NCBI RefSeq assembly: GCF_048403405.1
Contig: NZ_CP183129.1
Reading direction: 5' to 3' (one strand)
DNA: 64,000 nt
Source: Escherichia coli
Lineage (GTDB): Bacteria; Pseudomonadota; Gammaproteobacteria; Enterobacterales; Enterobacteriaceae
Of this stretch, positions 40,503 through 40,770 are shown piece after piece. Numbering within the stretch: position 1 is the first letter of the stretch; the number at the start of each line of letters is the position of its first letter. Under the pieces are notes generated by a model, which saw only the letters and a list, made by a program, of their open reading frames with translations, was not told where the DNA came from and ran no database searches. The position numbers and the translations under genes are program-made.

Positions 40503-40537
40503 TTGGGTGGTCTGTGCTTTACAGCACTTTCAAATTT

Positions 40538-40613
40538 TGGAGCGGGAAACGAGACTCGAACTCGCGACCCCGACCTTGGCAAGGTCGTGCTCTACCAACT
40601 GAGCTATTCCCGC
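40538..40613 (-). tRNA. glyX: tRNA-Gly (anticodon GCC), middle copy
   Basis: Identical 76-nt tRNA-Gly(GCC) sequence; 35-nt spacer to glyY. Confidence 0.95.
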
Positions 40614-40770
40614 TTAATCTTCGTCTTTCGAACCGCTACTGCCTTGGCTGCCTTCACTCACCTTAGTCACTTACTTTTGTAAGCTCCCAAGGATTCGTTC
40701 AGTTGCCGCCTTGTCGCAATTCGAAATACTGCGATTGGGTGGTCTGTGCTTTGCAGCACTTTTCAAATTT

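Follow-up and report, generated by a model that had tools for sequence, protein, structure and literature searches.

A full-length ERIC/IRU element in the glyV-glyX spacer of an Escherichia coli tRNA-Gly operon

The ERIC repeats of enterobacteria, also named IRU or RU-1, were reportedly described by Sharples & Lloyd in 1990 and by Hulton et al. in 1991. Reviews portray them as a repeat family of the Enterobacteriaceae of ~127 bp, with terminal inverted repeats (TIRs), TA at the termini and transcripts forming long stem-loops, and they are generally classed as non-autonomous elements with target-site duplication, similar to the miniature transposable elements with inverted repeats known as MITEs. 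Here, we deal with a copy of this family in a 64-kb stretch of E. coli DNA (contig NZ_CP183129.1; "the window" means this whole stretch), where it fills the spacer between glyV and glyX, the first two of three tRNA-Gly(GCC) genes of the glyVXY operon. With the family, this copy shares a length of ~121–124 bp, the imperfect palindrome, a conserved core containing the primer sites and an intergenic, transcribed setting, as well as the occurrence of several dispersed copies per enterobacterial genome and presence or absence between E. coli strains. It differs in being located within a tRNA operon, at 2 nt from the 5' end of a mature tRNA, in its degenerate termini (AA flanks and a 4-bp stem, compared with the TA duplication and 7-bp TIR of the family), and in its affiliation to a locus-specific lineage, which is 64–70% identical to other E. 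coli copies.

In Yersinia, according to what reviews relate of De Gregorio et al. 2005, ERIC elements are co-transcribed as RNA hairpins with orientation-dependent effects and contain an RNase E site in the 3' TIR. The invariant 3' end of the window copy (AGAUUAA) would likewise fit an RNase E-type motif. While the Yersinia cases concern mRNAs and ribosome-dependent unmasking, the window copy is flanked by untranslated tRNAs; thus, any effect of it would be on pre-tRNA processing. The 3'ETS-leuZ RNA and the internal spacers of metZWV resemble the window spacer in that RNase E and RNase P cut an RNA segment out of a polycistronic tRNA precursor, as would also apply here. However, these RNAs are short, Hfq-associated and provided with conserved single-stranded pairing sites, whereas the window spacer is repeat-derived and forms a long hairpin with a variable loop. 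Small, non-coding, hairpin-forming and co-transcribed repeats are also found in the REP/BIME, Correia/NEMIS, RUP and RPE families, but none of these has a sequence relationship to the window ERIC; REP units are much shorter and Correia elements are RNase III substrates. RPE, present in the tmRNA and RNase P RNA genes of Rickettsia, is a precedent for repeats in stable-RNA genes, with insertion within the genes and not in a spacer.

We consider it highly probable that the window contains an ERIC/IRU copy which goes back to an ancient insertion, was redistributed by recombination within the tRNA array, has been lost precisely and recurrently, and is co-transcribed with the tRNAs, excised and maintained as a constrained hairpin. 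Since the insert belongs to a repeat family described in 1990–91, following it up as a new RNA gene is not advisable. What is already known comprises the family and its properties; possibly new are the tRNA-array context, the orthology across genera and the measured constraint.

Identity of the glyV-glyX insert

Transfer RNA genes were called with ARAGORN and Rfam, and coordinates are those of the window. The array is encoded on the minus strand, so that the operon runs from right to left, beginning with glyV, followed by glyX and glyY; its neighbours are orn on the upstream and queG on the downstream side, the same as in annotated E. coli genomes. Its components are:

40771–40846, minus strand: glyV, tRNA-Gly(GCC), first gene of the operon (ARAGORN; Rfam RF00005, 69.1 bits)
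40737–40770, minus strand: 3' trailer of glyV, 34 nt, composed of AAAUUUGAAAA, a 5-bp GNRA hairpin and ACCACCC; common to spacer 2 and K-12
40614–40736, minus strand: ERIC/IRU element, comprising the 121-bp indel and the duplicated AA (filled/empty alignment, fold, ERIC alignment, covariation)
40657–40696, minus strand: central core of the ERIC element, with the site complementary to primer ERIC1R, the apical loop AAAA and the ERIC2 site (primer-site match, ERIC alignment)
40614–40622, minus strand: nearly invariant 3' end of the ERIC element, GAAGAUUAA, which constitutes the 5' leader of glyX and contains an AG|AUU motif (21-sequence alignment)
40538–40613, minus strand: glyX, tRNA-Gly(GCC) (ARAGORN, Rfam)
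40503–40537, minus strand: glyX-glyY spacer, 35 nt, lacking ERIC, with the hairpin GUGCU-GUAA-AGCAC at 40514–40527 (sequence, fold)
40427–40502, minus strand: glyY, tRNA-Gly(GCC), last gene of the operon (ARAGORN, Rfam)

An earlier, sequence-only reading of this stretch had noted three identical tRNA-Gly(GCC) copies, without stating their strand, and two unequal spacers. Both points are borne out: the genes are identical over their 76 nt each, and the spacers measure 157 nt (glyV-glyX, 40614–40770) and 35 nt (glyX-glyY, 40503–40537). Folding confirmed that both spacers open with the same trailer, i.e., AAAUUUGAAA(A), a 5-bp hairpin with a GNRA loop (GCAA or GUAA) and ACCACCC. In spacer 1, the hairpin reads GUGCU-GCAA-AGCAC (40746–40759), and it covaries between genera (pairs 14:26, 15:25 and 16:22); the preceding AAAUUUGAAAA is predicted to be an A/U-rich single strand of RNase E type. 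The statement that K-12 has spacers of about 35 nt at both positions was correct, with 36 + 35 nt found in K-12 MC4100 and likewise in O157:H7, CFT073 and 536. Alignment of the window with MC4100 reveals a clean 121-bp indel and otherwise no difference. Hence, the extra segment given as 120 nt in the sequence-only reading is real, its exact length being 121 bp. Because AA is present on either side of the indel, it can be placed at 40614–40734, 40615–40735 or 40616–40736; the insert stops 2 nt short of the mature glyX 5' end.

The RNA of the transcribed strand is predicted to fold into a single long, interrupted hairpin (−43.7 kcal/mol, z = −5.3), and the same architecture is seen in ERIC paralogs of E. 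coli (L022, L026). In the centre of the insert, GAATCCTTGGGAGCTTACAAAAGTAAGTGACTAAGGTGAG, 16/19 positions agree with the complement of primer ERIC1R and 18/20 with primer ERIC2; both primer sequences were confirmed as exact strings in published papers. The mismatches in the core are compensatory, with CCTTGG/CTAAGG in the window copy versus the canonical CCCCAG/CTGGGG. Used as sole query, the insert finds matches in 5,424 of the 5,426 complete E. coli genomes, at a median of 9 places per genome, which identifies it as a dispersed repeat despite its single copy in the window. Its supposed uniqueness, therefore, is restricted to the window, where neither a pattern search nor sensitive blastn detected a second copy within the 64 kb. 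The six places fetched from E. coli are all intergenic (puuR-puuC, metE-metR, queA-acpH, yeiL-psuT, ybhJ-ybhI, and a region resembling an integrative and conjugative element). The test of identity was alignment to canonical ERIC: the window insert aligns end to end with all six copies, and those at yeiL-psuT and ybhJ-ybhI hold the exact ERIC1R-complement and ERIC2 sequences. On the basis of the core, the primer sites and the end-to-end alignment with ERIC copies, the 121-bp insert is, judged by its sequence, a full-length ERIC/IRU element.

As to other annotations, the absence of a tRNA cloverleaf, of an obvious promoter and of a meaningful open reading frame (ORF) from the insert, as previously described, was corroborated. 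Neither ARAGORN nor Rfam calls a tRNA in it, consensus promoter and terminator scans of 40250–41050 called none, insert included, and RefSeq annotates nothing within it. The Rfam scan that had been proposed was run at a permissive E-value over 39500–41800, and no family matches the insert. Several ORFs of 12–31 codons exist on both strands, but they suffer frame-breaking indels between genera and were treated as noise; a coding insert was rejected on these grounds. Also rejected was YrlA (Y RNA-like) at 40450–40588 on the minus strand, a sub-threshold Rfam hit (40.3 bits vs. a gathering threshold of 69), which spans parts of glyX and glyY and is explained by its tRNA-like domain.

A side observation concerns UPEC (uropathogenic E. 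coli) 536 and similar strains, where only 1–3 matches to the ERIC query are detectable, compared with the median of 9; thus, ERIC content seems to differ markedly between E. coli lineages.

Distribution within Escherichia coli and across genera

Comparison with other Escherichia glyVXY loci, which the sequence-only reading had recommended, demonstrates that the insert is polymorphic. The site is filled in 1,622 of the 5,426 complete E. coli genomes (~30%) and empty in ~70%, including K-12, O157:H7, O103:H2 12009, UPEC 536 and CFT073. Since standard laboratory and reference strains lack the insert, it looks unfamiliar, but the notion of a strain-specific insertion does not hold in view of this frequency and of orthologs in many genera. 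The survey of Wilson & Sharp from 2006 is said to have included the genomes of CFT073, K-12 and O157. That E. coli ERIC copies vary between strains is known, as a 2024 review, citing Wilson & Sharp 2006, gives 14 ERIC copies that are not in K-12. Within the literature that could be searched, no relevant paper connecting glyV with ERIC came up.

A flank tree was built from 12 sequences, i.e., five filled and six empty E. coli alleles and Escherichia sp. MOD1-EC7003 as outgroup, compared over 750 bp of upstream and 1,200 bp of downstream sequence. The two types of allele intermingle on this tree, and filled ones occur on at least four flank haplotypes; M7424 and 2013C-4187 are among the filled strains. 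For example, the filled strain 32-4 shows 4–6 differences per 1,000 positions to the empty strains K-12, 2011C-3911 and WP4-S18, versus 27 per 1,000 to the window allele. The element itself is represented at glyV-glyX of E. coli by two near-identical haplotypes, which are two substitutions apart; the next-best E. coli matches to the window ERIC are at most 81% identical, and there is no closer donor copy among them. Empty alleles retain the left part that is specific for spacer 1 (extra A, loop C). Filled and empty alleles of E. coli are natural, near-isogenic material on which the influence of a 120-nt hairpin, 2 nt away from an RNase P site, on tRNA maturation could be studied.

Two further E. 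coli arrays are informative. TL20 (L031, NZ_CP191567.1, 307584–307993) has four tRNA-Gly(GCC) genes with spacers of 36 + 35 + 35 nt and without ERIC; given four genes in this strain versus three, the copy number of the array varies within E. coli. As a separate observation, the empty spacer 1 of LTC101 (L032) is chimeric, combining the extra A of spacer 1 with the loop T of spacer 2, which, from the sequence, resembles a short tract of gene conversion between adjacent spacers.

Outside E. coli, a collection of genomes was scanned with a gapped pattern consisting of a tRNA-Gly 3' end, the ERIC core and a tRNA-Gly 5' end, with exact matches in a single orientation. The scan returned 19 species representatives from ~10 genera, and the orthologous copy occurs in at least 18 other species. 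In the Enterobacteriaceae, ERIC elements in gly spacers are present in four Escherichia lineages (including E. whittamii), Citrobacter (five), Enterobacter, Klebsiella oxytoca, K. spallanzanii, Kluyvera, Yokenella, Pluralibacter, Silvania and two further enterobacteria; in addition, the element is present in Mixta theicola (Erwiniaceae). The filled Escherichia outgroups are E. whittamii, Escherichia sp. E1V33 and MOD1-EC7003. In every ortholog, the ERIC element starts past the ~34-nt trailer, and its last bases, ...GAAAGACGAAGATTA(A/T), leave 2 nt up to the following tRNA. In all cases with an upstream flank of sufficient length, orn precedes the array, which indicates that the locus is the same across genera.

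The occupied spacer varies. Escherichia, Pluralibacter, Kluyvera, K. oxytoca, Yokenella and one Citrobacter have the element in spacer 1. It is found in spacer 2 of Enterobacter, Silvania, two Citrobacter and the two further enterobacteria mentioned above, and C. youngae ATCC 29220 and Citrobacter sp. 18056 carry it in both; in Mixta, all three spacers of a four-gene array are filled. In a neighbour-joining tree, the 23 gly-spacer copies form one clade apart from six E. coli paralogs, and copies from one array group with each other. The window ERIC is 74–98% identical to gly-spacer copies and 64–70% to the E. coli paralogs. No ERIC copies outside the array were present within the fetched loci of other genera; for this reason, the paralog comparison is based on E. 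coli copies alone. The clade together with the clustering within arrays argues for one old insertion followed by concerted evolution of tandem units.

Several rearranged forms were encountered on the way. In spacer 1 of L004 and L017 (77 nt), the ERIC element is shortened, with both ends kept and the central ~75 nt gone, the endpoints of the deletion lying within the GGCGGC repeat of both arms. In Pluralibacter (L008), a shortened ERIC remnant situated 60 nt upstream serves as leader of the first tRNA-Gly. In MOD1-EC7003 (L018), the array and the downstream flank are near-identical to the window (ERIC 100%), while the upstream flank is 59% identical and devoid of an orn ORF; K. oxytoca (L014) likewise has an unrelated upstream flank without an orn ORF. 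On the sequence level, this suggests breakpoints of rearrangements at the tRNA array. Draft assemblies tend to be interrupted at the array as well, with L003, L012 and L021 terminating within it.

Conservation and RNA fold of the spacer element

Among the non-tRNA segments of the locus, the ERIC element shows the highest conservation in every genus when compared with the window. Between genera, its identity amounts to 82–94%, versus 55–77% for the 120 nt downstream of the array, 62–89% for the operon leader and 53–74% for the 200 nt further upstream; the four-fold degenerate sites of orn are 48–61% identical in the same species pairs. Within Escherichia species, the respective values are 76–84% for orn four-fold sites and 97–98% for ERIC. 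Homogenisation with other ERIC copies cannot explain this conservation, because the gly lineage is distinct.

The consensus fold of a 21-sequence alignment is a long hairpin, in which standard pairs are found in 97.8% of the cells, compared with 28–40% when partners are slid. The covariation analysis that had been suggested for the insert revealed 9 pairs that are kept through double-sided changes, a number reached by 0 of 500 shuffles; the comparison has to be read with the caveat that related sequences can beat shuffles without structure and that the fold was predicted on the same alignment. Several of the conserved pairs are G·U wobbles, as a consequence of which the sense RNA folds far better than its complement. 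The antisense strand reaches −24.0 kcal/mol (z = −1.6), so that the sense strand is better by ~20 kcal/mol, and E. coli ERIC paralogs exhibit a strand asymmetry in the same direction. This asymmetry points to selection on the transcript and not on a DNA cruciform. While the apical loop is variable between genera (AAAA, CUGA, CUUA, CUCA), the unpaired internal-loop segments CAAGGCGGCAAC and GAAGGCAGCC are conserved.

The boundaries of the spacer are conserved as well. An A-run followed by UUU is found straight after CCA in 23/23 orthologous spacers, and all of these end in RNATTA[A/T]. A/U-rich motifs of the RN|WUU type are present at both spacer ends in 23/23 cases, namely AA|AUU directly after CCA and AG|AUU 5 nt before glyX. 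RN|WUU is a motif of RNase E type and is short enough to occur by chance; the AG|AUU and AA|AUU motifs may be read as RNase E sites.

Taken together, the hairpin of the transcribed strand of the gly-spacer ERIC is probably under purifying selection, as judged from the comparison of sequences. The gly-spacer ERIC would represent a rare case in which the orthology of such an element can be traced over ~10 genera along with purifying selection and compensatory evolution.

Proposed history, competing explanations and neighbouring features

The explanation that we favour starts in an ancestor of Enterobacteriaceae and Erwiniaceae, with a single insertion at a distance of 2 nt upstream from a tRNA-Gly(GCC) gene. 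Later, the element would have been carried along, and unequal crossing-over and gene conversion among the tandem units of tRNA and spacer would have duplicated it, shifted it from one spacer to another or removed it. The filled Escherichia outgroups support the empty site as the derived state, and the empty E. coli alleles would be secondary, recurrent and precise losses. Spacer shuffling, multiplication and repeated precise loss would illustrate concerted evolution in tandem tRNA arrays without transposition.

On the RNA level, the following features delimit the presumed transcription unit:

40904–40931, minus strand: putative glyVXY promoter, TTGCAG, a 16-nt spacer and TATAAT, followed by the GC-rich discriminator GCGCCTCCC at 40895–40903 (read from the sequence)
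40368–40415, minus strand: probable intrinsic terminator, an interrupted hairpin followed by UUUUUGUUG (fold −14.3 kcal/mol, z = −2.7)

Both were assigned by eye, conservation and folding. The consensus scan missed the promoter because its −35 hexamer matches at just 3/6 positions; an upstream block, TCTCGTATAATGCGCCTCCCGTAACGA, is kept before the array in other genera, and the published forward primer for the glyVXY precursor begins at CCGTAACGACGCAGAAATG. The published precursor primers are exact matches to the window sequence and would yield the precursor with ERIC included. A strict terminator scan gave no call for the hairpin after glyY, which overlaps the first DnaA box of datA (see below). 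Lying between promoter and terminator of the operon, the ERIC element would be included in the polycistronic pre-tRNA, and its transcribed orientation would be the one that gives a stable, interrupted hairpin of ~55 bp. With both ends of the insertion paired in the hairpin, trailer and leader would meet in a geometry akin to that of a 35-nt spacer. Cleavage by RNase E in the A/U-rich segments at both ends, together with RNase P cleavage at the 5' end of glyX, would release a by-product of ~150 nt; in this context, the glyVXY precursor of K-12 is a direct-entry substrate of RNase E in vitro. A broken hairpin would harm folding and processing of the flanking tRNAs, through mispairing or misprocessing, while an intact hairpin or a clean deletion would be tolerated. 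If a disrupted hairpin is harmful and an intact or absent one harmless, this best explains how strong constraint can go along with easy loss.

Some points speak against this explanation. Co-transcription and the fate of the spacer RNA in ERIC-bearing strains are parts of it that we infer, as are the processing route, the mechanism of loss and the reason for the constraint. The ortholog search found 19 species representatives only, and the true distribution may be patchy. The E. coli termini, AAUC...GAUU with a 4-bp terminal stem and AA/AA flanks, are atypical in comparison with a TA duplication and 7-bp TIR; in several genera, the termini read TAATC...GATTA[A/T], i.e., with TA at each end, so that the terminal bases fit a decayed TA duplication without proving one. 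With regard to loss, the homology available to a conversion tract from spacer 2 would be limited to ~17 nt on the left, because empty alleles keep the left part of spacer 1; loss by hairpin-stimulated slippage or by transposase-mediated excision is possible. Finally, it is solely the "harmless if intact" argument that accounts for both constraint and repeated loss, and the observations agree just as well with a positive function which some lineages can do without.

Such a positive role is the content of an alternative which we regard as unlikely, though worth considering: a domesticated repeat that acts at the RNA level, either as a processing or insulation module tuning maturation or yield of tRNA-Gly, or as precursor of a stable spacer RNA. 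It would build on the identical nucleotide position from Escherichia to Mixta and on an evolution several-fold slower than that of adjoining synonymous sites. If true, the role would have to be dispensable or compensated in those E. coli lineages that lost the element. More specifically, the ERIC-containing spacer of ~150 nt might persist, after cleavage by RNase E and RNase P, as a stable RNA that is functional in itself, such as a sponge or decoy in the manner of 3'ETS-leuZ or a protein-binding RNA; a small RNA derived from the spacer had also been put forward in the sequence-only reading. The very stable hairpin of the sense strand, a conservation far above that of neutral sites at the locus, which extends to the unpaired CAAGGCGGCAAC and GAAGGCAGCC, and the existence of spacer-derived sponge RNAs in E. 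coli reported in the literature would be in line with this idea. However, the sole sizeable single-stranded apical loop is variable, Rfam knows no match, and the element is lacking in ~70% of E. coli, including K-12, O157 and CFT073, after repeated loss; a candidate seed was not identified, with no search for targets made. We, therefore, judge a functional spacer RNA of this kind to be improbable. A role of the palindrome as DNA, by cruciform formation or as a protein-binding site acting, e.g., on datA or supercoiling, is very improbable: the long palindrome does lie ~200 bp upstream of the datA DnaA-box cluster, and a review suggests that transcription through datA matters, but the strand-specific fold is driven by G·U pairs (−43.7 vs. 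−24.0 kcal/mol), a feature that would not be favoured in a DNA cruciform, no DNA-binding motif of ERIC is reported in reviews, and datA works in K-12 in spite of the missing element.

The remaining alternatives concern the origin of the insert. A recent, strain-specific transposition of ERIC into the glyV-glyX spacer would agree with the classification of the family as MITEs with target-site duplication, with the AA dinucleotide on both sides of the insert and with classic reference strains lacking the element. Set against this are the filled sites in 1,622 of 5,426 genomes, spread over no fewer than four flank haplotypes, the presence of the element in three further Escherichia species or clades and, at an identical nucleotide position with synteny of orn, in ~10 genera, and the monophyly of gly-spacer copies with respect to E. 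coli paralogs, of which the best match reaches no more than 81%. No evidence of recent movement of the window copy was seen, its distribution being better accounted for by vertical descent plus recombination within the array, and we give this scenario almost no credence. The sequence-only reading had raised a scar of recombination between tRNA copies and had named alignment as a check for a degraded fourth tRNA-Gly copy. Tandem tRNA arrays do recombine, as the four copies of TL20 recall, but ARAGORN and Rfam are silent inside the insert, and its best local alignment to tRNA-Gly scores 10, compared with 8.7 ± 1.6 for shuffled sequences, 71 of 300 of which reach at least that value. Similarity to tRNA-Gly, thus, is at chance level, whereas the insert aligns over its full length to ERIC copies at unrelated loci; both variants are to be considered refuted.

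Upstream of glyV, the operon leader of ~50 nt (40847–40897, minus strand) can form a two-tier hairpin, CGUAA...GCAGAAAUGC...UUACG (−8.4 kcal/mol, z = −2.8), and its 3' part, CGAAAGCAAAAUUAAG, is faintly similar to the ERIC 3' end, CGAAAGACGAAGAUUAA.

Downstream of glyY, four matches to the DnaA box were found at 40159–40167 (plus strand), 40171–40179 (minus), 40333–40341 (minus) and 40400–40408 (minus), with one perfect box, TTATCCACA, in the cluster 40159–40408. A review assigns the DnaA-titration locus datA to the intergenic DNA downstream of glyVXY and queG, and the cluster after glyY is datA. The box nearest to glyY, which overlaps the terminator-like hairpin, is kept in all other genera examined. 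RefSeq contains a hypothetical protein of 17 amino acids (WP_010723271.1 and variants) between glyY and queG, corresponding to ~40190–40245 of the window by homology with L002 2308–2361. Its ORF overlaps the 3' end of queG on the opposite strand, inside datA, and is probably an annotation artefact.

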